Made by a program: the position numbers and the translations under genes. From Arenicellales bacterium (GTDB lineage: Bacteria; Pseudomonadota; Gammaproteobacteria; Arenicellales; JBFEOO01), in NCBI GenBank assembly GCA_041550555.1, contig JBFEOO010000002.1, positions 1,865-65,864 of the forward strand: a DNA stretch of 64,000 nucleotides, read 5' to 3'. Below, piece after piece: positions 4,903-47,502 of the stretch. Position 1 is the stretch's first letter. Each line of letters starts with the position of its first letter. The notes beneath the pieces are model-generated. The model ran no database searches, was not told the origin of the DNA, and saw only the letters and a list, made by a program, of their open reading frames with translations.

Positions 4903-5547
4903 TCAGTGGACCCCGCGTTCGATGCGGTCGATAAGATGTCGCATCTGCGGCTGCTTGGTGCGCATCGCCGCGATGTTGGCCACCAGTCGTGCGCTGATGT
5001 GCGCGATGTGCTCGACCTCCACCAGGGCGTTGGCAGCGAGCGTCTGGCCCGTGCTAACGAGGTCGACGATACGGTCCGCAAGCCCCGACAGGGGCGCGAG
5101 CTCCATCGAGCCGTACAGCTTGATCACCTCGGTCTGAATCCCTTTGCTCGCGAAATGGCGCCGCGTCGTATGCGGGTATTTGGTGGCGATGCGCAAACGC
5201 GTCCAGCGGCTGGGATCGTCCGCCAGCGCCAACTCGCGCGGCTCGGCCACCACCATGCGGCAGCGTGCGATAGCGAGGTCGATCAGCTCGTAGAGCTCCG
5301 TCCCACCGTGCTCCATGAGGACATCCTTGCCCACCACGCCGAGATCGGCCGCTCCGAATTGAACGTAGGTGGGGACGTCGGCCGCCCGCACGATGACCAG
5401 CCTCACCGCTGCATCGCTCGACGGCAGGATCAGCTTGCGCGTGACGAGCGGATCCTCCAGGGGAACGATGCCGGCCTGGGCGAGCACCGGCAGGGCTTCC
5501 TCGAGGGTTCGCCCTTTCGACACGGCGATGGTCAGTGCGTTGGACAC
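4903..5547 (-). CDS. hisG: ATP phosphoribosyltransferase, short form (HisG-S)
   Basis: The 214-aa ORF starts [18 protein letters not shown] and has LVSTGQTL. Its length indicates the short HisZ-dependent form. It is the first gene of the his operon. Confidence 0.9.
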
Positions 5548-5673
5548 GCTGTCACCCTCGGCGTACGGCCGGTCGCCTCGTCAGGGGCGCAGCCGGCGAG
5601 TCGGGACCGTCGGGCGGCACCCGGCGGCGCCCGGTGGGCGCCCGCTTCACCACCGTCGGCTGCGTCGTGCGAC

Positions 5674-6975
<1,302 letters not shown>

Positions 6976-31821: not shown

Positions 31822-31841
31822 TGTTATGTTATAACATTATA
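31822..31841. promoter_or_regulatory. Zur box in the zur-znuCB / znuA divergent promoter region
   Basis: A perfect 12-bp palindrome ATGTTATAACAT (31826-31837) sits inside a 20-bp imperfect palindrome TGTTATGTTA|TAACATTATA (8/10 arm matches). It resembles the proteobacterial Zur consensus (GTTATA..TATAAC core) and lies in the 78-bp intergenic region. Confidence 0.8.
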
Positions 31842-31867
31842 CCACCACACCCGACGACAACCGCCCG

Positions 31868-32836
31868 GTGCTCAGCTCACTCCGCCGCACGCGGCGCATC
31901 GCCGCCGCTCTCGCCGTCAGCGCAGCCGTGCTGCCCGCTGCCGCAGCCGCCGTCTCGCCTCGCGTGGCGGTGACCATAAAGCCTGTTCACTCGCTGGTGG
32001 CGGGGATCATGGGGGACATCGGCGAGCCGGCGCTGCTGCTACATGGTGCGGCGTCACCGCACACGTACACGATGCGGCCGTCGGACTCCCGTCGCCTGGG
32101 CGAGGCAAACCTCGTCATTTGGGTCGGCGAGGCACTGGAGACCTTCTTCGCGCGCACGGCGCGTGTGCTGGCGCAGCGTGTCAACGTCGTCGCGCTCATG
32201 GACGCCGAAGGCCTGAGCCTTTTGGGGGCCCGCCATGCCGGCGCCTTCGCCGTGGCCGGGCCCGACGCGGACGACCATGCCCACGGGCACCGCTATGATC
32301 CGCATTTCTGGCTCGACCCCACCAACGGCCAGGTCATCGTGAAGGTGGTCGCCCGTTCGCTGGCCGAGCAGGACCCCGACAACGCCGGCCGCTACGAGGC
32401 CAACGCCGCCTCCCTGGTGCTGGCGCTCGAGCGCCTCGACGCGGAGCTCGAGCTCCGCACGGCGCCCGTCCGCAGCATTCCCTACGTCGTGCTGCACGAC
32501 GCCTACCAATACTTCGAGCGCCGTTACCGACTCAACGCGGTCGGCGCGCTGAGCGTCGGAACCGATCGCGCCATCGGTGCCCGTCGGGTCACGGAGATTC
32601 GCGCCGCAATTGCGAGCAGCGGGGCCGTGTGCGTGTTCGTCGAGCCGCAGTTCGAGCCGCGCCTGGTGCACACCGCCCTCGCAGGCACCGGCGTCAGCAT
32701 CGGCGTGCTCGATCCGCTCGGCGGCGAGATCCCCGCCGGTCCGTCGGCCTACTTCACACTGCTGCGGCGACTCGCAGACGCGCTCGTCGGCTGTCTGAGC
32801 GACCCGTCGGCCGCCGGCCCGCGGCAGCACGGCTGA
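31868..32836 (+). CDS. znuA: Zinc ABC transporter substrate-binding protein ZnuA
   Basis: The protein has a signal peptide, a PHTYTMRPSD motif, a His/Asp-rich loop (DADDHAHGHRYDPHFWLDP) and a GTG start. Confidence 0.9.
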   Translation: MLSSLRRTRRIAAALAVSAAVLPAAAAAVSPRVAVTIKPVHSLVAGIMGDIGEPALLLHGAASPHTYTMRPSDSRRLGEANLVIWVGEALETFFARTARVLAQRVNVVALMDAEGLSLLGARHAGAFAVAGPDADDHAHGHRYDPHFWLDPTNGQVIVKVVARSLAEQDPDNAGRYEANAASLVLALERLDAELELRTAPVRSIPYVVLHDAYQYFERRYRLNAVGALSVGTDRAIGARRVTEIRAAIASSGAVCVFVEPQFEPRLVHTALAGTGVSIGVLDPLGGEIPAGPSAYFTLLRRLADALVGCLSDPSAAGPRQHG

Positions 32837-32893
32837 CACGTTAGCGGCGCGAGGCTGGATTCCGGCCGCTTCGATGCCCTACCATCGCGGGCT

Positions 32894-33511
32894 ATGAGCG
32901 CGGGGCAACACGACCACGACGCGCCGCTGCCGGAGACGGTGCTGCGGGTGAAGGCGCTCGAGTCGCTGCTCGTCGAGAAGGGGCTCGTCGACCCCGCCGC
33001 GCTCGACGTCTTGATCGATACCTACGAGACGAAGGTGGGGCCGCGCAACGGGGCGCGCGTGGTGGCCCGCGCCTGGGCGGACCCCGCGTACCGACGCCGG
33101 CTGCTGGAAGACGCCAGCGCGGCCATCGCGGATATGGGCTTCTGCGGACGTCAGGGCGAGGACATGGTCGTGGTGGAGAACACGGACCGTGTGCACAACA
33201 TGGTGGTGTGCACGCTGTGCTCGTGCTACCCGTGGCCGGTGCTCGGCCTGCCGCCGGTGTGGTACAAGTCGGCCCCCTACCGGGCGCGCGCCGTCGCCGA
33301 TCCGCGCGGCGTGCTCGCCGAGTTCGGCGTCACCCTCGGCGACGACGTGGAGATACGGGTCTGGGACAGCACTGCCGAGGTCCGCTACCTGGTGCTGCCT
33401 CAGCGCCCGGCCGACACGGACGGCTGGAGCGAGGAACGACTCGCCGAGCTCGTCACGCGCGACTCGATGATCGGCGTCGGTCTGCCGGCGCGGCCCCCGC
33501 AGGCAGCGTGA
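32894..33511 (+). CDS. nthA: Nitrile hydratase alpha subunit, cobalt type
   Basis: The 205-aa ORF carries the metal-binding motif [10 protein letters not shown] at 33209-33226. Thr in C-T-L-C-S-C marks the Co type. Flanking NHase-alpha sequence is present ([19 protein letters not shown]). Confidence 0.92.
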
Positions 33512-34925: not shown

Positions 34926-36323
34926 TCACGCGCTGTCTCCGCCTCCCCCGCCCGTGAAGCGCCAGCGCGTGCCTTGCGCCCCGTCCTCGAGGGCGACCCC
35001 GCGCTCCAGCAGCTCGTCGCGAATGCGGTCGGCCGTGGCGAAGTCTTTCGCACTGCGCGCCGCGCCGCGGGCCGCGATCAGACGCTCGATCTCATCGATC
35101 TCGATCTGCGCGTCGCCGCGCCGCTCGAACCACTCCTCGGGCCTCTGCCCCAACAGACCGAGCACCTCGCCGGCCGCGAGCAGCTGGGCCTTGTAGCGGG
35201 CCCGCTCCGCGGAGTCGGCGGCGGCGTTGGCGGCGCGCGTCAGCTCGTGCAGCTCAGCGAACGCCTGCGGCGTGTTGAGGTCATCCTCGAGCGCGGCCAT
35301 GACGGCCGGGGGCGGCGCCGCATCCGGCGCCGGCGCCACGTCACCGAGATCCCGCAGCGTGCCGTAGAGCCGGTCGAGGCTGCGCTGCGCGCGGGGCAGC
35401 GTCTGCGCCGACCAGTCGAGCGGCTTGCGGTAATGAGCGCCCAACAGGGCCGCGCGGACCGTCTCGCCCGGTGCCTGCGCCAACAGGTCCCGCACCAGCA
35501 GAACGTTGCCGAGAGACTTGGACATCTTCTCCTGATCGACGTTGACGAAACCATTGTGCACCCAGTGTCGGCAAAACAGTTTGCCGCCGTGCGCGCAAGT
35601 GCTCTGCGCGATTTCGTTCTCGTGATGGGGAAAAACCAGATCCTGCCCGCCGCCGTGGATATCGATGGTCTGGCCCAGGTGCGCCTCGATCATGCACGAG
35701 CACTCGAGGTGCCAGCCCGGGCGCCCGCGCCCCCAGGGGCTGTCCCAACCGGGGAGATCGTCGGTGGACGGCTTCCAGAGCACGAAGTCGGCCGGGTCGC
35801 GCTTGTAGGGGGCCACCTCCACGCGGGCCCCGGCGATCATGTCCTCTCGCGCGCGGCCCGACAGCCGGCCGTAAGCGGCAAACGACGGCACGTGGAACAG
35901 CACGTGGCTTTCGACCTCGTAGGCGTGACCTTGCGCGATGAGGCGCTCGACCATGGCGATCATGCCGTCGATGTGGTCGGTCGCCCGCGGCTCGAGCGTA
36001 GGCGGCAGGACTGCGAGCGCCTCCATGTCGTGGTGGTAGATCGCCGTGTAGCGGTCACTGACGGCGGTAATCGGCACCCCGGCCTCGGCGGCGGCCGCAT
36101 TGATCTTGTCGTCGACGTCCGTGATGTTGCGCGCGTAGACGACGCCGTAGTGACGCCGCAACACCCGGAACAGAACGTCGAACACCACCGCCGGACGCGC
36201 ATTGCCGATATGCGGGTGGCTGTACACGGTCGGCCCGCACACGTACATCGTCACCCGCCCGGGGTCCGCCGGCACCAGCGGCTCCTTGCGACGCGTGAGC
36301 GTGTTGTAGAGCTGTATGGCCAT
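34926..36323 (-). CDS. cysS: Cysteine--tRNA ligase
   Basis: The 465-aa ORF has [19 protein letters not shown] (HIGH) and KMSKSLGN motifs. Confidence 0.95.
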
Positions 36324-36442
36324 GGCGGCGGATTATAATGGCGGCACACGACGTTTCACGAGCCGGTCCGCGGCCGGGCGCGGCGGCGTGACACCGCCAT
36401 GCGAACAGGGCACGTCCGCCCGCCGGCGCGCAGCGCACGTTT

Positions 36443-37030
36443 GTGACGGTCCCATTCATGGATAACTCGCACGTGCCCGCGGTGCTCGCGGACGGCACAA
36501 CACCGCTCTCTGTCGCGGCACTCCTCTGTATGCTCGACGAGCTCGGTGTGGCCCACAGCACCGTCAGCCATCCCCCCCTGTTCACCGTGGAGCAGTCGAA
36601 GGCGCTGCGCGGTGAGCTGCAAGGCGCCCACACCAAGAACCTCTTCCTGCGTAACAAGAAGGGCACCATGTGGCTGGTCACCTGCCGCGAGGACTGCCAA
36701 ATCGACCTCAAACGCCTGGGTGCCGACCTCGGCGCCGGCCGCTTGTCCTTTTGCAGCCCGGAGCGGCTGATGAAGTTCCTCGGCGTCACGCCGGGCGCCG
36801 TCTCTCCCTTCGCGGTCGTCAACGACAGGACCGGCTCGGTGCAGGTCGTGCTCGATCGCCGACTGCTGCAGCAGGACCCACTCAACCTGCACCCGCTCGA
36901 CAACACCCGGACCACCGCCGTGTCCGGCGCCGACCTGCTCAGGCTTCTGGACGCGGTAGAGCATACGCCGCTCGTGCTCGACCTCGACGCGCAGGTCGAC
37001 GGCGGAACGGCCGCCGCGTCGGCCCGCTGA
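36443..37030 (+). CDS. YbaK/ProX-family aminoacyl-tRNA deacylase (prolyl-tRNA synthetase associated domain)
   Basis: The protein contains HTKNLFLRNKKG and GVTPGAVSPFAVVND motifs typical of ProX/YbaK trans-editing proteins. The start is either GTG 36443 or ATG 36458. Confidence 0.75.
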   Translation: MTVPFMDNSHVPAVLADGTTPLSVAALLCMLDELGVAHSTVSHPPLFTVEQSKALRGELQGAHTKNLFLRNKKGTMWLVTCREDCQIDLKRLGADLGAGRLSFCSPERLMKFLGVTPGAVSPFAVVNDRTGSVQVVLDRRLLQQDPLNLHPLDNTRTTAVSGADLLRLLDAVEHTPLVLDLDAQVDGGTAAASAR

Positions 37031-37092
37031 CCACAGGCCGTCGCCGACCACGGCCCCCGACGCGGAACCAGGCTGCCTTGCAATGCCTCGTC

Positions 37093-37121
37093 TTGCGTTT
37101 TGGCAGGCAGACGGCTAGATT
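37093..37121 (+). promoter_or_regulatory. Candidate sigma-70 promoter for the ileS leader
   Basis: TTGCGT (37093-37098), a 17-nt spacer and TAGATT (37116-37121) lie about 10-20 nt before the first T-box Stem I nucleotides. The hexamers are weak. Confidence 0.35.
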
Positions 37122-37138
37122 TCGGCGAAATCGAGCAA

Positions 37139-37447
37139 GGCGTTGATAGGGACGAGTAGCCGCGTCGATACAGCGACAGCGAGCGGGGGACGGTGGAAGC
37201 CCCGCGCTGTAGCGCGGCGAAAATCACCCTGGAGCCGCTGACCGAACCGCGCCACCGGCGCTGCGCCGGGGTTCGCAGTAGGATCAGCCGGTCGGCCACC
37301 GTTATCGGGCCAGGGTGTCGAGCGGGCCGAACCGTCCGTCGTCACCCGCAGAGGCCACCGACTCGTGAGAGGGTGGCGAAACCGGGTGGTACCGCGAACG
37401 TCTCGCCCCGGGGATTCCAGCAACGGACCCCGGGGCGTTTTGCTTTT
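37139..37447 (+). promoter_or_regulatory. T-box riboswitch leader, isoleucine (AUC) specifier
   Basis: - Stem I has a GA/K-turn region (TTGATAGGG paired to CCCTGGAG) and the helix GCCGCG 37159-64 / CGCGGC 37213-18.
- An AG-bulge-like ACAGCGAG lies at 37176-83, and the distal loop is GACGGTGGAAG.
- The specifier loop is GAAA-ATC-A, with ATC at 37223-25.
- The F-box CCGTTA is at 37299-304, and Stem III is GCCACC/GGTGGC at 37354-77.
- The T-box sequence GGGTGGTACCGCG is at 37384-96.
- The antiterminator carries the 7-nt bulge TGGTACC.
- An overlapping terminator follows. Confidence 0.88.
37404..37447 (+). terminator. Intrinsic terminator of the T-box leader
   Basis: A perfect 10-bp stem CGCCCCGGGG (37404-13) / CCCCGGGGCG (37428-37) with a 14-nt loop is followed by TTTTGCTTTT. 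Its 5' arm is shared with the antiterminator 3' strand (CGC 37404-06, CCCGG 37407-11). Confidence 0.85.
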
Positions 37448-37460
37448 GAGGCACGAGCCG

Positions 37461-40400
37461 ATGAGCTTCAAGGAAGTGTCCGGCCGCTACGACGGCCCGC
37501 AACTCGAACAGGAAATTCTCGAACTGTGGCGCGAGCACGATGTCTTCGAGGCGACGCTCCGGCACAGCGAAGGACGGCCGCTTTTTACCTTCAGTGAGGG
37601 TCCGCCGACCGCGAACGGACGGCCGGGAATTCATCACGTGCTGGCGCGCACCTTCAAGGACATCTACCCGCGTTACAAGACCATGCGCGGCTATCACGTC
37701 CCCCGTAAGGCGGGCTGGGACACGCACGGCCTGCCCGTCGAGCACGAGATCGAGAAAGAGCTGGGCATCTTCGACAAGTCCCGTATCGAAGCGGAGGTCG
37801 GCATCGCAGAGTTCACACGGCGCTGCCGCGAGTCCGTGCTTCGCTACATCGGCGACTGGGAGAAGATGACCGAGCGCATGGGTTTCTGGGTCAACATGAA
37901 GCAGGCCTACTACACGCTCGACAACGATTACATCGAGTCGGTGTGGTACCTGCTCAAGACGATCTGGGACAAGGGGCTCATCTACCAGGGCTACAAGGTG
38001 GTGCCCTACGATCCCCGCATCGGCACCACGCTCTCCTCGCACGAGGTGGCACTCGGCTACAAGGAGGTGGATGACCCCTCGGTCTACGTCCGCTTTCGGC
38101 TCATCGAGGAACCCGACACCTCGTTGCTGGTCTGGACGACGACGCCCTGGACGCTGCCGTCGAACCTGGCGCTCGCCGTGCACCCCGACGTCGACTACGC
38201 ATTCGTCGAGACGGCGGGAGAGGTGCTGGTAATGGCCGCGGAGCGGGTGGACGCCGTGGTGGGCGACACCGAGCGCCCCGTGCGGACCCAGCGCACGGTG
38301 AAAGGCAGCATGCTCGTGGGTCAGCGCTACCAGCGCCTGTTCGACTATCTGCCCGTCGAAGGCGACGTCTGCCGGGTGCTGCCTGCGGAGTTCGTCAGCA
38401 CCGCGGATGGCACGGGCATCGTGCACATCGCGCCCGCCTACGGCGAGGACGATCTCGAGCTCGGACAGCGTTACGACTTGCCGGTGCTGCACGGTGTCGG
38501 TCTCGACGGTCACTTCCTGCCAGAGGTCACACCGGTCGCGGGAAAGTTCTTCAAGGATGCCGACCCCACGCTGATCGGGCTGCTCGATGAGCGCGGGCTT
38601 CTGTTCCGCGCCGAGACCCACCGGCACAACTATCCCTTCGGGTGGCGCACCGGCGATCCCTTGATCTACTACGCCAAGAACGCCTGGTACATCCGCACCA
38701 CTGCTTTTCGCGACCGCATGGTCGAGTTGAACAAGACCATCAACTGGGTTCCGGAGTCCATCCGCGAGGGTCGTTTCGGCAATTGGCTCGAGCACAACGT
38801 CGACTGGGCGCTGTCCCGCGAACGTTTTTGGGGCACACCGTTGCCGCTGTGGACGGACGGCGCGGGCAGCTACGTGTGCATCGGTTCGGTCGCCGAACTC
38901 GAGCAGCTGGCGGGCCGATCCCTCGAGGGGCTCGACCTGCACCGGCCCGCTGTCGACGAGGTGACCTTTCACAAGGACGGCAAAGAGTACCGCCGCGTCG
39001 CCGAGGTGATCGACTGCTGGTTCGACTCGGGAGCGATGTCCTACGCCCAGTGGCACTACCCTTTCGAGAACGAGGGCAGTTTCCGCAGCCATTTTCCGGC
39101 CACGTACATCTGCGAGGCCATCGACCAGACGCGGGGGTGGTTCTACACCCTACACGCGATCGCCACCATCGTCTCGGACAGCGTGGCATACGAGAACTGC
39201 GTGTGCCTGAGCCACATCGTGGATAAGCACGGCAAGAAGATGTCGAAGTCGCTCGGCAACATCGTCAATCCCTACGATGTGTTCGACACCATCGGCGCCG
39301 ATCCGCTGCGCTGGTATTTTCTGGCCCGCGTAGCCCCCGAGGGCCAGAAGCGCATCTCCGTCGACATCGTCGCCGACGTCGCCAGCTCGTTCCTGAACAC
39401 GCTTTGGAATGCCTATGCCTTCTTCGTGCTCTACGCGCGCCTCGATCGGGTCGATCTCAGCCACGCCGTTCCGCTTGCCCATCGACCGGAGATCGATCGC
39501 TGGGCGTTGGCACTGCTCGAGCAGACCGTGACGACAGCGACCGAGGCGCTCGACCGTTACGACGCCAAGACGGCCGGCGAAGCCATCGAGTCGTTCGTCG
39601 ACCAGCTGAGCAACTGGTACATCCGCCGTAACCGGCGACGCTTCTGGAAGGCGGAGGCAGGCGCCGACAAGCAGGCCGCCTATCTGACGCTCTACGAATG
39701 TCTCGACGTCATCGAGCGCCTGATCGCGCCGTTCATGCCGTTTCTGGCCGAGGCGATGTACCAGAACCTGGGCCGCGCCGCAGCCGCCAGCGTGCACATG
39801 ACGTCATGGCCTGCACCGGTGGCCGAGCGGCGCAATCCGGCCCTGGTGGAGGAGATCGACATCGTGCAGCGGGTGGTAGGCCTCGGCCGCGCTGCCCGAG
39901 AACAGTCGCGGGTGCGCGTGCGTCAGCCGCTCGCCCGACTCCTGCTCCGCGTGCCCGACGATGCCTCAGCCCGGGCGGTCGAACGCCATCGGGGGCAAGT
40001 GCTCGAGGAGCTCAACGTCAAGGCGCTGGAATTCATCGCTCGCGACGACGAGTTCGTCAGCTACCGCATCAAGCCCAACTTGCCGCGGCTCGGTAAACGC
40101 CTGGGAAAACGTATCCCGGCGATTCGCAGCGCACTCGAGCAGGCCGCCGGCAGTACCATCGCAGCGGCCGTAGCGCTCGGCGAGGGGTTTGCCCTCGAGA
40201 TCGACGGCGAGTCGCTGGTGTTCGAGCCGGAGGACGTGCTCGTCGAGACCACGTCGGCGCCGGGGTTCGCCTGTGCCGAGAGCGCCGGCTATCTGGCGGC
40301 CCTCGATACGACCGTGACGCCTGCGCTGCGGCGCGAAGGGTTGGCGCGGGAGCTCGTGCGCACGGTGCAGGACGCCCGCAAGCAGGCCGGCCTGACGGTG

Positions 40401-40592
40401 TCCGATCGCATCAGGCTGCGCGTCGACGGTAGCGAAGCGGTGCAGCAGGCGCTGCGCGAGTACCGCCCTTTGATCATGGGGGAGACGTTGGCGTCGGAGT
40501 GGGTCGACGGCGAGTTCGAGCCGCACTTCGAAGTCGACCATCGACTCGACGACGAGCACTGGTCCATCGCACTGGCGCGAACGACCCCCTGA
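37461..40592 (+). CDS. ileS: Isoleucine--tRNA ligase, type 2 (about 1043 aa)
   Basis: The protein starts MSFKEVSGRYDGPQLEQEIL and has PPTANGRPGIHHV (HIGH) and KMSKSLGN. Its length and the C-terminus lacking the type-1 zinc-finger Cys cluster indicate type 2. GAGG lies 9 nt upstream of ATG 37461. The track ORF from 37365 reads through the terminator. Confidence 0.93.
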   Translation: MSFKEVSGRYDGPQLEQEILELWREHDVFEATLRHSEGRPLFTFSEGPPTANGRPGIHHVLARTFKDIYPRYKTMRGYHVPRKAGWDTHGLPVEHEIEKELGIFDKSRIEAEVGIAEFTRRCRESVLRYIGDWEKMTERMGFWVNMKQAYYTLDNDYIESVWYLLKTIWDKGLIYQGYKVVPYDPRIGTTLSSHEVALGYKEVDDPSVYVRFRLIEEPDTSLLVWTTTPWTLPSNLALAVHPDVDYAFVETAGEVLVMAAERVDAVVGDTERPVRTQRTVKGSMLVGQRYQRLFDYLPVEGDVCRVLPAEFVSTADGTGIVHIAPAYGEDDLELGQRYDLPVLHGVGLDGHFLPEVTPVAGKFFKDADPTLIGLLDERGLLFRAETHRHNYPFGWRTGDPLIYYAKNAWYIRTTAFRDRMVELNKTINWVPESIREGRFGNWLEHNVDWALSRERFWGTPLPLWTDGAGSYVCIGSVAELEQLAGRSLEGLDLHRPAVDEVTFHKDGKEYRRVAEVIDCWFDSGAMSYAQWHYPFENEGSFRSHFPATYICEAIDQTRGWFYTLHAIATIVSDSVAYENCVCLSHIVDKHGKKMSKSLGNIVNPYDVFDTIGADPLRWYFLARVAPEGQKRISVDIVADVASSFLNTLWNAYAFFVLYARLDRVDLSHAVPLAHRPEIDRWALALLEQTVTTATEALDRYDAKTAGEAIESFVDQLSNWYIRRNRRRFWKAEAGADKQAAYLTLYECLDVIERLIAPFMPFLAEAMYQNLGRAAAASVHMTSWPAPVAERRNPALVEEIDIVQRVVGLGRAAREQSRVRVRQPLARLLLRVPDDASARAVERHRGQVLEELNVKALEFIARDDEFVSYRIKPNLPRLGKRLGKRIPAIRSALEQAAGSTIAAAVALGEGFALEIDGESLVFEPEDVLVETTSAPGFACAESAGYLAALDTTVTPALRREGLARELVRTVQDARKQAGLTVSDRIRLRVDGSEAVQQALREYRPLIMGETLASEWVDGEFEPHFEVDHRLDDEHWSIALARTTP

Positions 40593-40718: not shown

Positions 40719-40795
40719 CCAACACCCCAGGTTGCACAGGGTTGGACAGGGATGGTTGAAAAAAGAGGATGTATAATTATTTTCTAAAAAATATA

Positions 40796-40823
40796 TTGAC
40801 ATTATCTGAATATTCTGTAGAGT
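40796..40823 (+). promoter_or_regulatory. Candidate sigma-70 promoter inside the AT-rich island upstream of the fasciclin gene
   Basis: TTGACA (40796-801), a 16-nt spacer and TAGAGT (40818-23) lie about 70 nt upstream of ATG 40895. A perfect TATAAT at 40772-77 lacks a good -35. Confidence 0.35.
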
Positions 40824-40894
40824 ACAGGATGTGGGTAGTAGACAATTCTGGAAATTTTAACGACTGTCTAAAAAAATCTCGAGGAATCAACGCC

Positions 40895-41404
40895 ATGCGC
40901 AAACTCATCGCTCTCGCACTCGTCGTAGCCAGCACCGCCGGCGGCCTCTCCGCGCTGGCCAAGGTCGGTTCGGCCCCGGATACCCCTGTCGACGTCGCCA
41001 GCGCCGTCCGCGGCTCCGGCGAGCTGGGTCTCTTTGCCGGCGTGCTGCGCGACACGGACGTGAATGCAACGCTCCGCAGCGACAGCGGCTGGACGCTGTT
41101 CGTCCCCTCGGACAGCGCGCTGCGCAACGAAGGCGCCGCCTTCCTGCTCGAAGAGGTTCTGCGCGCGCCGGCGAATGCCGGTCGACTGCTCGACCTGGCG
41201 AAGTCGCATGTCGTGAAGGGAACGCTGAGTGCCCGCGAGCTCGAGGATCGTGTCGACGTCCCCACCTTGGCTGGTGCGCGGCTGTCGATCGAGCGGGTCG
41301 GTGAAGGCCTGCGGGTGGGTGGTCACGCCATGGTCGTCGACCGCGTCGAAACCGCCAACGGTACGGTATACGTTGTCGACCGCCTGCTCTGGCCGCTCGG
41401 TTGA
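40895..41404 (+). CDS. Fasciclin (FAS1) domain protein, secreted
   Basis: A signal peptide (MRKLIALALVVASTAGGLSALA) is followed by FAS1 motifs (WTLFVPSDSAL, NGTVYVVDRLL). GAGGAA lies upstream of the ATG. The track ORF start at 40769 lies in AT-rich non-coding sequence. Confidence 0.85.
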   Translation: MRKLIALALVVASTAGGLSALAKVGSAPDTPVDVASAVRGSGELGLFAGVLRDTDVNATLRSDSGWTLFVPSDSALRNEGAAFLLEEVLRAPANAGRLLDLAKSHVVKGTLSARELEDRVDVPTLAGARLSIERVGEGLRVGGHAMVVDRVETANGTVYVVDRLLWPLG

Positions 41405-41545
41405 CCACGCCGCCATGCCGATAGCCTTGCAGCTCCAGCTCATGCGGCAAGGCTCGGGATAACCCCTGCGACGGGTGTGGTGCGACAGCGGCACCCCACT
41501 CGGTCAGGAATGTAGGAGCTTTCGGCCGGCGTCGGCGGGATCGAA

Positions 41546-41587
41546 AGCGACGGCGCCTGTGGCAGCAGCACAGGCGTCGCTTTTCTT
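41546..41587 (+). terminator. Candidate intrinsic terminator after the fasciclin gene
   Basis: The stem AGCGAC(GGC)GCCTGTG / CACAGGCGTCGCT has 13 bp with a 3-nt bulge and a 7-nt loop. It is followed by TTTTCTT. Confidence 0.5.
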
Positions 41588-41673
41588 GATCAGTTTACTC
41601 AGGTATTATCGCTGGCGGGCTTACGTCCGCTCAGCCTCTCCAGCCTCGAGCCCAGCCCGGGACATCCGCCAAG

Positions 41674-42165
41674 ATGCTGCACCCGACATTGACCATTGAG
41701 CGAGTTACCGAAGGCTTCGCCCTGATACAGGACTGGGACCAGCGCTACCAGTTCATCATCGACCTCGGCGCCAAGCTGTCGCCCATGGACGAGGATGCGC
41801 AGAGCGAGCACAACCGCGTCCAAGGCTGCATGAGCAAGGTCTGGATCAGCGCGCAGCGTGACCCGCGGGATGCCGCGCGGATCGTGCTGCAGGGAGAGAG
41901 CGAGACCAGCACCGTCAAGGGCATCGTGGCGATCTTGGTGGCGGTCTACTCTGGCAAGACGCCGGCGGAAATCCAGGCGCTCGACGCCGACGCAGTCTTC
42001 GATGGCCTCGGCCTCTTCGACCACCTGAGCCCGACGCGGCACGTCGGCGTGTATGCCATGGTCGAGCACATCAAGCAGCGCAGCGCGGAGGCGGCCACCG
42101 GCGACTGCGTGCCATCGGTCGCGGCCAGCGCCTCCCTGCCCACTGGGGCACTTGCCGCCGAGTAG
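41674..42165 (+). CDS. sufE: SufE/CsdE-family sulfur acceptor protein
   Basis: The protein contains DWDQRYQFIIDLG, NRVQGCMSKVWI (conserved persulfide Cys) and LSPTRHVG motifs. Confidence 0.85.
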   Translation: MLHPTLTIERVTEGFALIQDWDQRYQFIIDLGAKLSPMDEDAQSEHNRVQGCMSKVWISAQRDPRDAARIVLQGESETSTVKGIVAILVAVYSGKTPAEIQALDADAVFDGLGLFDHLSPTRHVGVYAMVEHIKQRSAEAATGDCVPSVAASASLPTGALAAE

Positions 42166-42481
42166 ACTCCCCGGCCCCAGCCCGTGTCGTAATCGGCGCG
42201 GGCGCCGCCCAGGCGCCTCAGCGGCTGTCGACCGATGCCGCTCTGCCGTACCCGCCCCCTACGGTTTCGATAGCCCGGTGCTAGACTTGTAGGGAGTCAA
42301 CGGCAAAAACACACAACCGAAAGCCGGTCCGGCACTTTGTCGCCTAACGCGTCGGACGGGCTACAGCGTGGTCGCGGGCGCATCCGCCTCGCCGCGATGC
42401 GGCGAGCCGCGGGAGGCTGTCTTTCGCCACGCGCCTGGTCGCGGCCTCGGCCACGAGACCGCACCGGACGGAGGGTAGCGA

Positions 42482-45199
42482 ATGCTTAAGCGTTTGGGGC
42501 TCGTCCTCGCCCTGGCGCTCGCCTGCGCGACCGGCGCCTATGCCGGCGATGGCCGATTCCGTTTACTCGTCGCCAACACCGCGGCGGAGACCGGGGTCAT
42601 GGCACGGCTCGTCGCCGAGTTCGCGAAGCGCCACCCGCAGTATGACGTCGAGATGGAGGTCGCCGGCGGGCTGGTTGTTCTCGAGCGCGCCCGCGAGGGC
42701 CGCGCCGACGCCGTGGTGACGCATCATCCGCCCAATGAGCAGCTGTTCATCGCTGACGGCTACGGCGTATCGCGCACGCTCTTCATGTTCAACGATTTCG
42801 TGCTGCTCGGTCCACCGGACGATCCGCTCGAAATCCAGCGTGAACGCGATCTCGTTCGGGTACTGAACACCCTCGCCGACGCCGAGGTGAGCTTCATGGT
42901 CCAGGGCGAGCGTTCAGGAACCTATCAGAAGCTGGCAGAGCTATGGTCGCTCGCGCAGATCGAGCCTGACTGGATCGGCTACGAGCCCATCGGTACGAGC
43001 TCGGCGAGCACGCTGCACGCAGCCGCCGCCATGGGTGCGTACGCATTCGCCGACATCGGGACCTACCTGGCAAACCGCGCGGAGATTCAGGACCAATTGG
43101 TGCCGCTCTATCGCGATCACCACGCCCTGCGCAACTTCTACCACTACCTCGTCGTCAACCCGGAGACGATCCCCGCCGCCAACCGAGAGGCCGCAGTGCG
43201 CTTCAAGGAGTTCCTCGTATCCGCCGACGGGCAGTCGCTCATCGAGCAGTTCGGCATGGAGGAATTTCAGACGGCGGTCTTCGCGCCCGCCGCTCATCTC
43301 GATCCCGGCCTGCAGGCCGAACAAGCCGCCGCCGAGATCCGGCGCCAGCAACGCACCCTCTACACGGTTTCCTCGCTGGCTCTGGTGCTGGCGCTCTCCG
43401 GCATCATGACCACGTTCCTCTACGTCCGCGCGCGCAGGGCCGAACGCCGTCGCCATGCCAGCGAACAGCGCTTCAAACGGGCGGTAGCCGGCACCAACGA
43501 CGGCATCTGGGACTGGGACCTCACGCGGGATCACGCCTATTTCTCTCCCCGCATGCTGCGAATTCTGGGCCTCTCCTCCGATAGCCAGGTCGCGGAGCCG
43601 CTTCGTCTATTGCTCGGTGCGGCGCACCCCGATTTTCGTGACGCCCTCGAGCAGACGCTGACGCACCAGCTCGACGACGGCGACCGTACCCTGTTCAGCA
43701 CCGAGTTCCGCCTGTGCGACGCGGTCAGCGGCGAGACCTGGGTCATGCTGCGCGGGCGCGTGCTGCGCGACGAACAGAGTCGTGCCTTGCGGATGTCGGG
43801 CTCGCTGAGCGACATCTCCGCGGCTAAACACCAGCAGGCCGCCATCGAACACCAGGCGCTTCACGACGCCCTCACGGACTTGCCGAACCGCCTGCTGCTC
43901 CAGGACCGCCTCGAGCAGAGGATCGGCCAGACGCGCCGCAGCGGCGGCACCTTCGCCCTGCTGATGATGGATCTCGATCGGTTCAAGGAAATCAACGACA
44001 CCCTCGGTCATCAGATCGGCGACGATATCCTCCAGCAGGTGGCGTTGCGCCTGACGACGATCTTGGGCGACTCGGGCACCGTCGCGCGGCTCGGCGGCGA
44101 CGAGTTCGCGGTCCTGCTGCCGGAAGTCAGCGAGCGGCGTGCGAAGCACACCGCCGAGAAGATCCGCCTGGCGCTCAAGCGCACCTTCAGCATCAAACAC
44201 CACAACCTCGTCATCGGGGCCAGCGTCGGCATCGCGATGTACCCCGAGCACGGCGAGACGGTGAACGCATTATTTCAGCATGCCGACGTCGCCATGTATC
44301 AGGCCAAGCACAGCAACACCGGCAGCGCCTTCTACGACGTGGCGGTCGATCCGTACAGCATCCAGCGGCTGACGCTCGAGAAAGATCTGAGCGACGCCAT
44401 CGAGGCGGATGAGCTCGACATCCACTTTCAGCCCAAGATCAACCTGCGTACCAACATGCTCGTTGGCGCCGAAGCGCTGGTGCGCTGGACTCATCGCTCA
44501 CGCGGTGCCGTCCCGGCCGGGGAGATCATCGAGCTCGCAGAGAAGACGGGTCTCATCAAAAACCTTACCTACTGGATGATCGACAAGGTCTTTCGCCAGT
44601 GCGCCGACTGGGCCAAGGAGGGATTCTATCTGCCCGTGGGAATCAACCTCTCGGCGTGGAACGTCCAGGACGCGGCACTCGCGTGGAACGTCGAGAACAA
44701 GCTTTCGCAATGGAAGATACTGCCCGACCAGGTGGAGTTCGAGATCACCGAGAGCGCCATGATCTCGGATCCCGCCAGCGTAGAGCAGACGCTCGAACGT
44801 TTGAACGACATCGGCATCCGCCTGGCGGTCGACGACTTCGGAACCGGTTTCTCCTCGCTGGCGTACCTGAAGCGTCTGCCGGTGCAAAGCGTCAAGATCG
44901 ACAAATCCTTCGTCCAGAACATGTGTGCCGACGACAGTGATCGGTCGATCGTGCGATCCACCATCGAGATGTCTCACAGCCTCGGGCTGAACGTCGTCGC
45001 GGAGGGCGTAGAGACGGAAGAGACGCTGCGACTGCTTAGCGAGCTCGGCTGCGACATTGCACAGGGCTTCCACATCTCCCACCCCCTCCCCGCCGGGGAG
45101 TTCGCGCGCTGGGCTGCGGGCTCCGCCTGGGGATCCCAACCGCTGCACAGCGTTTCGGGAACCGCCTCCTACCGATCAGGAAAAAACCGACTACATTGA
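42482..45199 (+). CDS. Membrane c-di-GMP signalling protein: periplasmic TupA-like solute-binding domain, TM, PAS, GGDEF, EAL
   Basis: - The 905-aa ORF begins with a signal/TM segment.
- A PBP domain follows, resembling tungstate-binding TupA (RLLVANTAAETG..., GYGVSRTLFMFNDFVLLGPPDDP).
- A TM helix lies near aa 296-318, followed by PAS (GTNDGIWDWDL).
- GGDEF is intact (RLGGDEFAVLL).
- The EAL domain is intact (EALVRW, DDFGTGFSSLAYL, KIDKSFV, EGVET). Confidence 0.85.
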   Translation: MLKRLGLVLALALACATGAYAGDGRFRLLVANTAAETGVMARLVAEFAKRHPQYDVEMEVAGGLVVLERAREGRADAVVTHHPPNEQLFIADGYGVSRTLFMFNDFVLLGPPDDPLEIQRERDLVRVLNTLADAEVSFMVQGERSGTYQKLAELWSLAQIEPDWIGYEPIGTSSASTLHAAAAMGAYAFADIGTYLANRAEIQDQLVPLYRDHHALRNFYHYLVVNPETIPAANREAAVRFKEFLVSADGQSLIEQFGMEEFQTAVFAPAAHLDPGLQAEQAAAEIRRQQRTLYTVSSLALVLALSGIMTTFLYVRARRAERRRHASEQRFKRAVAGTNDGIWDWDLTRDHAYFSPRMLRILGLSSDSQVAEPLRLLLGAAHPDFRDALEQTLTHQLDDGDRTLFSTEFRLCDAVSGETWVMLRGRVLRDEQSRALRMSGSLSDISAAKHQQAAIEHQALHDALTDLPNRLLLQDRLEQRIGQTRRSGGTFALLMMDLDRFKEINDTLGHQIGDDILQQVALRLTTILGDSGTVARLGGDEFAVLLPEVSERRAKHTAEKIRLALKRTFSIKHHNLVIGASVGIAMYPEHGETVNALFQHADVAMYQAKHSNTGSAFYDVAVDPYSIQRLTLEKDLSDAIEADELDIHFQPKINLRTNMLVGAEALVRWTHRSRGAVPAGEIIELAEKTGLIKNLTYWMIDKVFRQCADWAKEGFYLPVGINLSAWNVQDAALAWNVENKLSQWKILPDQVEFEITESAMISDPASVEQTLERLNDIGIRLAVDDFGTGFSSLAYLKRLPVQSVKIDKSFVQNMCADDSDRSIVRSTIEMSHSLGLNVVAEGVETEETLRLLSELGCDIAQGFHISHPLPAGEFARWAAGSAWGSQPLHSVSGTASYRSGKNRLH

Positions 45200-45588
45200 A
45201 AAAAAGCGCTGCTATAACAGGCGTCACCGACGCCTGAGCGCGACGAAAACAATATCTAGCGCGAGCCCGCAACCGCCGGATCACAGGGTCCCGCGGAGCA
45301 AAACGGCGGGCATGTCGGCGATGGCGCGGTAACGGGCTGTTCGTTGTCGACGACTCCGGCCGAACGCCGGATGGGGTAAGCGGTGGCAGATTGTTATGCG
45401 ACCGGCAGTAGGGTGCCGCCAGCTCCATGGGGGAGTGGGCGGCGCCGAGCTATTGCCGGTGGCAGCGCCGTGCTTCCCCCCTGCGCGACCACCCATTTCT
45501 ACAACTCAGCAGCAGCTTCAATTACGTCAATTCGCAGCTACAACGAGATCCAAAGCAGCAATCACATACAGCAACAGGAGAAGCAGAA

Positions 45589-46704
45589 ATGTTGGACAAC
45601 ACTGGTGTGTTCGAGACCAATTCGACGTGTTCCGTCTCCCTCGGCGAAATCGAGGCGAAACCCCTGACCAGTTTTTCACACGGCGGCGGCTGCGGCTGCA
45701 AGATCGATCCTACTCAGCTCTCGCAGATTCTCGCCAACGTACCCAGGACGACCCCCGATCCGCAGCTGCTGGTCGGTATCGAAAACAGCGACGACGCTGC
45801 CGTATACCAGATCAGTGACAGCGAGGCGCTGGTCTTCACCAACGACTTCCACACCCCCACCATCGACGATCCGTATGTCTACGGGCGCGCGGCGGCGGCT
45901 AATGCGCTATCCGACATCTACGCCATGGGGGGTCGACCCATCATGGCCACGGCGATCGCCGGCTTTCCCGTCAACGAACTCCAGACCGAGACGCTGCAGG
46001 AGGTCATGCGGGGCGGAGTGGATGCCTGCACGGAGGCCGAGGTTGCGCTGAGTGGAGGCCACAGCATCGACAATCCGCAACCGATCTTCGGCTTGGCGGC
46101 AATCGGCCGCGTCCACCCGAAACGTATCAAGACGAACGCCGCGGCGAAGCCGGGCGACGAGCTCATCCTCACGCAGCCGCTGGGGATCGGCGTGCTGGCC
46201 AGCGCCTACCGCGTCGATATGCTCGACAGCGCTGCCTACGACGAGTTCGTTCGCGCGCTCATGCACATGAACAAGCAGGGCTCTTGGCTCGGGGAGATCG
46301 ACGACGTTCATGCGATGACGGACGTCACCGGCTTCGGGTTGGCGGGGCATCTCGTGGAGATGGCCCGCGGCGCCCGCGTGACCATGGAGATTGCGGCCGA
46401 CGTCGTGCCGGTGCTGCCCAGTGCGCTACCGCTCGCCGAAGAAGGCGTCTTCCCCGGCGGCGCGTATCGCAACATGGAGAGCTACAGCGCCGTGCTTTCG
46501 TTCGGCGAGGACTGGGACTTAGACCATCAGCTGCTCTTCACGGACCCGCAGACCAATGGCGGGCTGTTGATCGCGGTCGACCCCGGTGCGACCCGCGACG
46601 TGCTCAAACGGCTTGCCGACCAGGGCTGCCCGTCGGCCACCGTCATCGGCAGGGTGGCGGCGAAGAGGACCACTGAGCAGCCGCACGTAGCGTTCGTGCG
46701 CTAG
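45589..46704 (+). CDS. selD: Selenide, water dikinase (selenophosphate synthetase) SelD, Cys type
   Basis: The protein has LTSFSHGGGCGCKIDP (the catalytic Cys/Lys loop), DDAAVY, an AIR-synthase-like fold and TDVTGFGLAGH. AGGAG lies 8 nt upstream of ATG 45589. The track ORF from 45427 is an extension. Confidence 0.9.
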   Translation: MLDNTGVFETNSTCSVSLGEIEAKPLTSFSHGGGCGCKIDPTQLSQILANVPRTTPDPQLLVGIENSDDAAVYQISDSEALVFTNDFHTPTIDDPYVYGRAAAANALSDIYAMGGRPIMATAIAGFPVNELQTETLQEVMRGGVDACTEAEVALSGGHSIDNPQPIFGLAAIGRVHPKRIKTNAAAKPGDELILTQPLGIGVLASAYRVDMLDSAAYDEFVRALMHMNKQGSWLGEIDDVHAMTDVTGFGLAGHLVEMARGARVTMEIAADVVPVLPSALPLAEEGVFPGGAYRNMESYSAVLSFGEDWDLDHQLLFTDPQTNGGLLIAVDPGATRDVLKRLADQGCPSATVIGRVAAKRTTEQPHVAFVR

Positions 46705-46722
46705 GAGGCGAGTCACCCTCGA

Positions 46723-47502
46723 ATGGAATTCGCGCTGTATTCGACGCTGTTCGGGCTCGGCTTCGTCGGAGGCCTGTTCTCCGGCCTGCTCGGCATCGGC
46801 GGCGGCATCCTGATGGTGCCACTGCTGCTCTACGTGCCGCCGCTGTTCGGCGTGACCGCGTTGGGCATGAAGGTGGTCGCCGGCATGACGGCGGTGCAGA
46901 GCTTTGTCGGCGCACTTACCGGCGCCGTTGGCCATCATCGTTACAAGCGCATTCATTTGGGGCTCGCGCTGCATCTCGGCGTGCCTATGGCGATCACCTC
47001 GTTGGTCGGATCGATGGCGTCGAAGTACCTCTCCGACACGGTCATACTGATCGTGTTCGCCGCAATGGCTCTTGCGGCAGCGCTGTTGATGTTGGCACCC
47101 CCCCGAGCGGAGAGCACCGACGTTCCGCTGGAAGAGGTCGCGTTCAGCCGTTCACTAGCGGTCCTCGTCGGGGTCGTTATCGGCACCCTGTCTGGCATCG
47201 TGGGCCAGGGCGGTGCGTTTCTTTTCATTCCTGCTATGCTGTTGTTGCTGCAAATTCCCACCCGGGTCGCGATCGGGACCGCACTGGCGGTCGGGATCGC
47301 GGCTTCGGGTGCCGTTTTTTTGGGACGCGTCGGCACGGACCAGATACCATGGGGTTGGTCACTGGCTGTGGTCGCAGGTGTCGTCATCGGCGCACAGCTG
47401 GGAAGCAGGCTCAGCCAATACACGCCGCGAACGGTGCTGCGCGAGATACTGGCTGTCATCATCACCGGTTCGGCGATCAAGATCTGCCTGGAAATCGTCT
47501 AG
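46723..47502 (+). CDS. TSUP (TauE/SafE, DUF81) family anion permease
   Basis: The 259-aa polytopic ORF has an internal repeat with G.GGG motifs (LLGIGGGILMVP and IVGQGGAFLFIP). It starts 19 nt after selD, and the selD stop is embedded in TAGGAGG. Confidence 0.85.
   Translation: MEFALYSTLFGLGFVGGLFSGLLGIGGGILMVPLLLYVPPLFGVTALGMKVVAGMTAVQSFVGALTGAVGHHRYKRIHLGLALHLGVPMAITSLVGSMASKYLSDTVILIVFAAMALAAALLMLAPPRAESTDVPLEEVAFSRSLAVLVGVVIGTLSGIVGQGGAFLFIPAMLLLLQIPTRVAIGTALAVGIAASGAVFLGRVGTDQIPWGWSLAVVAGVVIGAQLGSRLSQYTPRTVLREILAVIITGSAIKICLEIV

Follow-up and report, generated by a model that had tools for sequence, protein, structure and literature searches.

T-box riboswitches are usually described as a Gram-positive trait and have been pursued as Gram-positive-specific antibiotic targets. 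A 2008 survey found them in 2 of 125 Proteobacteria, Geobacter and Pelobacter, in both cases upstream of leuA (PMC2494555), and a 2020 paper on Xanthomonas called them 'restricted to Gram-positive bacteria' (PMC7270179). In the literature that we searched, no paper links T-boxes to Woeseia, and among papers naming both T-box riboswitches and Gammaproteobacteria none appears, judging by titles and abstracts, to describe one there; entries in Rfam or TBDB may exist. Here we describe a leader RNA upstream of ileS, a gene for a type-2 isoleucyl-tRNA synthetase (IleRS), in 64 kb of contig JBFEOO010000002.1 from an Arenicellales bacterium (Gammaproteobacteria); this whole stretch is referred to as the window, and its coordinates are used throughout. 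We conclude, with a probability of about 0.88, that the element is a class I (transcription-attenuating) T-box riboswitch for tRNA-Ile(GAU) that controls the type-2 ileS. This conclusion is carried by the match in sequence and structure, the covariation, a pair of mutually exclusive helices, the agreement of codon and gene, and conservation across a clade. An earlier note, made from the letters of this DNA without database searches, had called such a placement unexpected, in keeping with the literature above. The mechanism of the T-box is canonical; what is unusual is its taxonomic home.

The leader RNA and its signals

A scan of the 64-kb window against Rfam at the default gathering score returned zero matches, because the leader reaches 85.2 bits and the curated gathering score of RF00230 (T-box leader) is 93. 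When E-values were obtained by cmscan restricted to 37000-37520, RF00230 matched 37134-37413 over model positions 1-219 of 219 with E=4e-19, far beyond chance. The gathering score is an annotation cut-off and not a biological feature, and the shortfall is probably due to the high GC content (70%) and to insertions at two places, the Stem II loop and the stretch ahead of Stem III. A covariance model of our own, R1, built from the window leader and 13 other gammaproteobacterial leaders, scores the window leader at 195.9 bits, and Rfam and R1 alike find one T-box in the 64-kb window. The earlier note had made its call depend on a significant RF00230 match, and the E-value bears it out, although a routine pipeline at default settings would seem to contradict it. 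NiCo and the remaining weak Rfam matches in the restricted interval had E-values of at least 0.39 and were taken as chance.

Features of the leader and its gene follow, located by covariance-model (CM) alignment unless otherwise stated.

37134..37447, + strand, whole T-box leader RNA (aptamer, antiterminator/terminator and U-run), from RF00230 and R1, with the terminator setting the 3′ limit
37140..37235, + strand, Stem I (mapped pairs)
37145-46 and 37232-34, + strand, kink-turn (K-turn) within Stem I, GA and GAG
37155-58 and 37219-26, + strand, S-turn/specifier loop, AGUA and GAAA-AUC-A
37159-64/37213-18, + strand, Stem I helix GCCGCG/CGCGGC
37175-82, + strand, AG bulge
37183-88/37200-05, + strand, distal helix
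37189-99, + strand, distal loop GACGGUGGAAG
37223..37225, + strand, specifier codon AUC (Ile), followed by the conserved purine A37226
37238..37287, + strand, Stem II with S-turn (CCGAA ... AGUAGG)
37289..37311, + strand, Stem IIA/B pseudoknot (IIA from the alignment; IIB by eye with a cross-pairing test)
37289-91/37299-301, + strand, Stem IIA
37294-97/37308-11, + strand, Stem IIB, loop GGCC with GGCC, identified by eye
37299-304, + strand, F-box CCGUUA
37354..37377, + strand, Stem III
37461..40592, + strand, ileS, type-2 isoleucyl-tRNA synthetase, 1043 aa (TIGR00392, 933 bits)

When the RF00230 structure is mapped onto the window, 43 of its 45 consensus pairs are canonical; Stem I pairs canonically throughout (21/21). 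The specifier AUC (Ile) agrees with the downstream IleRS gene. These results reproduce, feature by feature and position by position, the complete isoleucine (AUC) T-box that the earlier note had proposed. The covariance alignment puts AUC and no other triplet in the specifier position, finds the claimed Stem I helix, K-turn, AG bulge and distal loop in place, and agrees on the F-box (CCGTTA, 37299-304) and on Stem III (37354-77); likewise, the open reading frame (ORF) downstream, with its TIGR00392 match, is the ileS that the note had placed there. The note missed that this ileS is of the type-2 (MupA/MupB-like) form, that the element is clade-wide, and that its score lies below the Rfam threshold.

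Two regions of the leader carry lineage-specific insertions: the Stem II loop, which holds 24 additional nt, and, in the CM alignment, the segment between the pseudoknot and Stem III. A pseudoknot is not encodable in a nested covariance model, and Stem IIB was tested separately. Native IIB helices average 4.2 bp, compared with 3.0 bp when loops are matched with non-native partners, and none of 5000 permutations reached the native mean. There are 11 distinct IIB helix sequences; the window pairs GGCC/GGCC, and GATCC/GGATC, GATCT/AGATC, GCTC/GAGC and ACCC/GGGU occur elsewhere. Shuffling each sequence separately gave no significant result for the pseudoknot, a 4-bp GC helix leaving that test too little power; the cross-pairing result shows that the Stem IIA/B pseudoknot covaries. 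We set aside an unconstrained minimum free energy fold of the whole leader, which was long-range and not T-box-like; such a fold is uninformative for an RNA that folds co-transcriptionally and is bound by tRNA.

The 3′ part of the leader, and the expression signals on either side of it, comprise the following.

37382..37411, + strand, whole antiterminator (CM alignment), with helix CCGGG/CCCGG at 37382-86/37407-11
37394-97/37403-06, + strand, second antiterminator helix GCGA/UCGC (CM alignment)
37387-93, + strand, 7-nt bulge UGGUACC (CM alignment)
37384-96, + strand, T-box sequence GGGUGGUACCGCG (CM alignment)
37404..37447, + strand, intrinsic terminator, read from the sequence, with the perfect 10-bp helix CGCCCCGGGG/CCCCGGGGCG at 37404-13/37428-37
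37438-47, + strand, U-run TTTTGCTTTT, directly 3′ of the terminator helix
37093..37121, + strand, putative sigma-70-type promoter, -35 TTGCGT at 37093-98, 17-nt spacer, -10 TAGATT at 37116-21
37448..37451, + strand, Shine-Dalgarno-like GAGG, 9 nt before the ileS ATG and outside the terminator, read from the sequence

Folding of 37378-37413 gives the antiterminator as the structure of lowest energy (-12.3 kcal/mol), and the terminator hairpin has an energy of -27.2 kcal/mol. Because positions 37404-11 serve as both the 3′ strand of the antiterminator and the 5′ strand of the terminator, the two structures are mutually exclusive, and the difference in energy indicates that termination is the default state, as in canonical T-boxes. 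The earlier note had described the two exclusive structures. Its antiterminator (CCGGG/CCCGG plus GCG/CGC around the bulge UGGUACC) is present, with a second helix that runs on to GCGA/UCGC; its T-box sequence falls at 37384-96 in the CM alignment; the exclusivity that it claimed for the 10-bp terminator is confirmed by the shared strand; and the comparison of fold energies that it had suggested is the one just given. A consensus promoter and terminator scanner called nothing in 36500-38000: the terminator escaped it because its loop is 14 nt long and the scanner's limit is 8, and the promoter because its -35 agrees with consensus at only 3 of 6 positions.

A TTGnnT-N17-TAnnTT motif occurs at the equivalent site in 14 of 15 gammaproteobacterial leaders, and to judge by its sequence 37093..37121 may function as a sigma-70-type promoter. 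The GAGG at 37448-51 and the ATG at 37461 lie downstream of the U-run and neither is sequestered; GAGG is unpaired in the fold, and GAGG or GAG stands at the equivalent site in most gammaproteobacterial leaders.

Established knowledge of the T-box family suggests how the promoter would be used, how tRNA would be bound and how its charging state would be read. Transcription would start at the sigma-70-type promoter, about 10 nt upstream of the T-box element. Stem I would then capture tRNA-Ile, the AUC specifier pairing with the GAU anticodon and the distal AG-bulge/loop platform stacking on the tRNA elbow, while Stem II, the IIA/B pseudoknot and Stem III would position the 3′ domain. Bacterial tRNA-Ile(GAU) carries the discriminator A73, which is complementary to the fourth bulge base, U. 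With uncharged tRNA, the free 3′ ACCA would pair with the bulge UGGU and stabilize the weak antiterminator, allowing RNA polymerase to read through and ileS to be expressed. With charged tRNA, the antiterminator would not be stabilized, the terminator and U-run would form, and transcription would stop before ileS.

Conservation in related leaders and rival explanations

To place the leader among its relatives, we scanned one genome per GTDB species with the IleRS protein and searched all 80 loci with R1. No IleRS identical to the window protein was found in that scan. The 18 closest sequences, at 64-74% identity, all come from metagenome-assembled genomes (MAGs) labelled Gammaproteobacteria (Woeseiaceae, Acidiferrobacteraceae, Chromatiales, Arenicellales); beyond Gammaproteobacteria, identity is ~50% to Chloroflexota and 43-50% to Ignavibacteria, Bacteroidota, Poribacteria, Actinomycetota and Clostridia. 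Across the 80 loci, R1 identified a full-length T-box upstream of ileS in 14 gammaproteobacterial loci, from Woeseiaceae, Chromatiales, Arenicellales and others. It also detected T-boxes in the majority of the Chloroflexota loci, in seven from Clostridia and in a single Actinomycetota locus; it found none in the Ignavibacteria, Bacteroidota, Poribacteria, Rhodothermales and Acidobacteria loci. Twelve gammaproteobacterial relatives, drawn from loci L001-L015 and L065, were also scored against RF00230. Two passed the gathering score (L002 at 99.4 bits, L015 at 98.8 bits), and the other 10, like the window leader, fell below it.

We then compared the window leader with 13 gammaproteobacterial relatives in a 14-leader alignment. 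Invariant across it are the AUC specifier, the residues of the K-turn and S-turn, the AGCGA of the AG bulge, the GUG..AG of the distal loop and the whole T-box sequence, and the helices vary in sequence. With the Rfam-derived structure, 89.9% of alignment cells are paired, compared with 32-47% when partners are slid by 1-3 columns; 31 of the 45 pairs have changed on both sides, and on each of five measures all 500 shuffles fell short. Compensatory changes are found in every Stem I helix (also in a wider set of 53 leaders from several phyla), in 5 of 6 pairs of Stem II and in all 6 counted pairs of Stem III. RNAalifold, run without a supplied structure, recovered Stems I, II and III and the antiterminator. 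Fitting the 53-leader alignment to the model biased it towards the structure; in it, paired cells make up 90.6%, and compensatory change is seen in 41 of the 45 pairs. No leader departs from AUC at the specifier, neither among the 15 from Gammaproteobacteria nor among the 52 related leaders that cover the position, and UGGU is present in every aligned T-box bulge. These results mark the leader as conserved and no relic, and are evidence of selection on the RNA.

All 15 gammaproteobacterial leaders also have a terminator that shares sequence with the antiterminator and has a T-run after it, at -22 to -80 kcal/mol versus about -10 to -20 kcal/mol in Chloroflexota and Clostridia. In four leaders the terminator hairpin contains long, near-perfect palindromic insertions of 57-105 nt (-35 to -80 kcal/mol), which may represent either the insertion of a small repeat or a strengthening of termination particular to the lineage:

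L043:5881-5981, L009:5886-5990, L065:5906-5977 and L002:735-791, palindromic terminator insertions

Two related loci differ from the window in arrangement. In L016, an Arenicellales MAG (L016:5055-6001), a glutathione S-transferase-like ORF at 5238-5987 lies between the T-box/terminator (5055-5323) and ileS, and because of this position it would be under Ile-tRNA control too. In L014, a gammaproteobacterial MAG contig of 2.4 Mb (L014:4972-6001), a type-2 ileS lies 43 nt downstream of ribF (FAD_syn and Flavokinase domains) and is without a T-box. Since ribF-ileS is the classical proteobacterial operon position, the foreign ileS2 appears to sit in the ribF-ileS slot of L014 with its riboswitch lost.

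Several points weigh against reading the window leader as a working T-box. Its 85.2 bits fall short of the gathering score of 93; the GAU anticodon and A73 of the host tRNA-Ile are assumed from general knowledge, and tRNA scans found no tRNA genes in the window or in 19 related loci; the gammaproteobacterial relatives are all MAGs, whose taxonomic labels depend on binning; and clade members L003, L012 and L014 have no T-box in the R1 search, so that the element is dispensable in some lineages. The low score and the three losses, in L014 after ileS2 had entered the ribF-ileS slot, are what might be expected of a decaying relic, a T-box brought in with ileS2 and now regulating nothing in its gammaproteobacterial host. 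Yet the 15 leaders, whose IleRS proteins are only 64-74% identical, retain every functional element, with AUC, the T-box sequence and UGGU invariant and the terminator and U-run present in 15/15, and the compensatory changes in 31/45 pairs and in the pseudoknot are covariation not expected of a relic; we regard decay as highly improbable. An artefact of assembly or binning, in which a T-box-ileS from Chloroflexota or Firmicutes was joined to a gammaproteobacterial contig, would fit with Chloroflexota holding the nearest non-gammaproteobacterial IleRS and with relatives known from MAGs. It is hardly credible, however, given that proteobacterial genes lie on both sides of ileS within one 64-kb window and that independent contigs carry proteobacterial neighbours of their own (ribF in L014; in L016, a cysS 65% identical to that of the window). 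GC content is 64-66% over ileS versus 66.6% for the window, and GC content at third codon positions (GC3) is 0.85 in ileS, similar to its neighbours, with no break in composition; this continuity speaks against both a chimera and a transfer in the very recent past. Further, the IleRS is 64-74% identical to the 18 sequences labelled Gammaproteobacteria versus ~50% to Chloroflexota, and the leaders have the sigma-70-type promoter motif in common.

The remaining alternative concerns mechanism. The best-known ileS T-boxes outside Firmicutes, those of Actinobacteria, mostly act on translation, according to work cited in PMC7778990, and the host of the window shares their high GC content, so the element might be an ileS T-box of class II, the actinobacterial type, which acts through sequestration of the ribosome-binding site. 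Such T-boxes are marked by a truncated Stem I without the distal platform and by a sequestrator over the Shine-Dalgarno sequence, and the window leader has neither. By contrast, its Stem I has the full length, AG bulge and distal loop included, the competitor of the antiterminator is a GC hairpin of 10 bp with TTTTGCTTTT immediately after it, the Shine-Dalgarno-like GAGG at 37448-51 lies downstream of that hairpin and is unpaired in the fold, and all gammaproteobacterial relatives have the same architecture. A class II element is accordingly very unlikely. Every structural feature that defines the T-box family and was tested is present in the window leader, and we retain the reading of a class I T-box controlling ileS.

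Gene neighbourhood and the origin of ileS2

An alignment to MupA and MupB that spans nearly the whole IleRS (797 and 783 bits) identifies it as type 2. The backbone around it is that of a diderm proteobacterium: the window holds hisA/H/B/D/G, murA, Grx4 glutaredoxin, mlaF/E/D/C, lptC/A and rpoN, along with ptsN, rapZ, NPr, ptsI, mgtE and lnt. The earlier note had read this synteny as gammaproteobacterial, which holds, as the flanks are gammaproteobacterial or proteobacterial and the closest IleRS relatives are all labelled Gammaproteobacteria. The genes directly upstream of the leader are as follows.

34926-36332, - strand, cysS, divergent
36392-37030, + strand, YbaK/ProX-type aminoacyl-tRNA editing-domain protein (PF04073, E=8e-30)

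Three aminoacyl-tRNA-related genes are thus consecutive from 34926-37030 onward: cysS, the editing protein and T-box-ileS. The end of the editing protein is separated from the putative -35 by 63 nt. The gene that usually follows ileS in Proteobacteria is lspA; downstream of ileS here (40769-47502) lie a fasciclin-domain protein, sufE, a large GGDEF-EAL protein with an N-terminal TupA-like binding domain, selD (selenophosphate synthetase) and a TauE/SafE exporter. Further upstream, at 31835-33511, lie genes for a ZnuA-like metal-binding protein and, next to it, the alpha subunit of a nitrile hydratase (TIGR01323, 315 bits); a beta subunit or an activator might be encoded by the ORFs beyond. A synteny search found a single shared ileS neighbour among the gammaproteobacterial loci, the cysS of L016, which lies upstream as in the window and is 65% identical to the window cysS.

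The genes flanking ileS differ between gammaproteobacterial lineages, and there may have been later rearrangement or transfer within Gammaproteobacteria. In a neighbour-joining tree of 80 IleRS2 sequences with 60 bootstraps, the gammaproteobacterial IleRS2 form one clade in 60/60 replicates, with the exception of Oceanococcus locus L068. The type-2 IleRS of this gammaproteobacterial MAG (L068:6001-9072) groups with Rhodothermales/Balneolales and has no T-box, which indicates that Gammaproteobacteria acquired ileS2 a second time, independently. For the main clade, the simplest account has ileS2 arriving once, long ago, along with its T-box, and descent being vertical from then on, with occasional loss; we infer that the two entered a gammaproteobacterial ancestor together, from a Chloroflexota-like or another T-box-bearing donor.

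A more specific scenario is that a whole gammaproteobacterial clade (Woeseiaceae and related uncultured lineages, represented by MAGs only) replaced its housekeeping ileS with a Chloroflexota-like ileS2, thereby importing a T-box that was kept functional for a long time and would be the first natural T-box system described in Gammaproteobacteria. It would take in the sigma-70 promoter, the reinforced GC-rich terminators, the passage of the cassette between phyla and the sub-threshold Rfam scores. We hold it tentatively, at somewhat less than even odds. The gammaproteobacterial clade groups with Chloroflexota in 33-36 of 60 bootstraps, a moderate support that leaves the donor assignment weak, and the best non-gammaproteobacterial match to R1 is clostridial (L069, 133 bits), with Chloroflexota at ~107 bits. 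The base after the specifier codon gives AUC-A in the gammaproteobacterial and most clostridial leaders and AUC-C in most Chloroflexota. The RNA comparison leaves the donor unsettled.

Significance and comparison with known T-boxes

The mechanism is textbook, and the value of the element lies in its distribution and evolution. A conserved and apparently functional clade of leaders in Gammaproteobacteria suggests, from sequence comparison, that the switch can work in a Gram-negative cellular context, and that a T-box can travel across phyla with an aminoacyl-tRNA synthetase gene. If true, this would clearly exemplify how a riboswitch that senses tRNA can pass between phyla in one cassette with its gene. 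The clade also forms a natural series, with the T-box kept in some members and extended or lost in others. Ten of the 12 relatives and the window leader score below the RF00230 gathering score. T-boxes of high GC content are therefore probably annotated less often than they occur, and those with insertions seem to be missed systematically; surveys of taxa that depend on that threshold would understate the range of T-boxes.

Three groups of described T-boxes invite comparison. The Deltaproteobacterial T-boxes upstream of leuA in Geobacter and Pelobacter (PMC2494555) resemble the window element in having a Gram-negative proteobacterial host. They differ in belonging to the delta class, in regulating a biosynthetic gene, leuA, and in their specifier, whereas the window element precedes a foreign-type aminoacyl-tRNA synthetase gene and is clade-wide. 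The actinobacterial class II ileS T-boxes share with it a type-2 ileS, AUC-type isoleucine specificity and a high-GC host. As described by Sherwood et al. (2015), in the account cited in PMC7778990, these combine a truncated Stem I with sequestration of the ribosome-binding site, whereas the window element is full-length and ends in a terminator.

In its parts the window element agrees with the class I T-boxes of RF00230, such as those of Bacillus subtilis tyrS and ileS and of ileS in Chloroflexota and Clostridia. These have the same components of Stem I, the Stem II S-turn, the IIA/B pseudoknot with F-box, Stem III, the 14-nt T-box sequence, the antiterminator with its UGGN bulge, a competing terminator with U-run, and a specifier that matches the regulated synthetase gene. 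Unlike these class I relatives, the window element has a gammaproteobacterial host, a GC content of 70%, a score below the gathering threshold and two insertion sites; compared with the ileS T-boxes of Chloroflexota and Clostridia in particular, the gammaproteobacterial terminator hairpins are much stronger, and the gammaproteobacterial leaders have AUC-A where most Chloroflexota have AUC-C.

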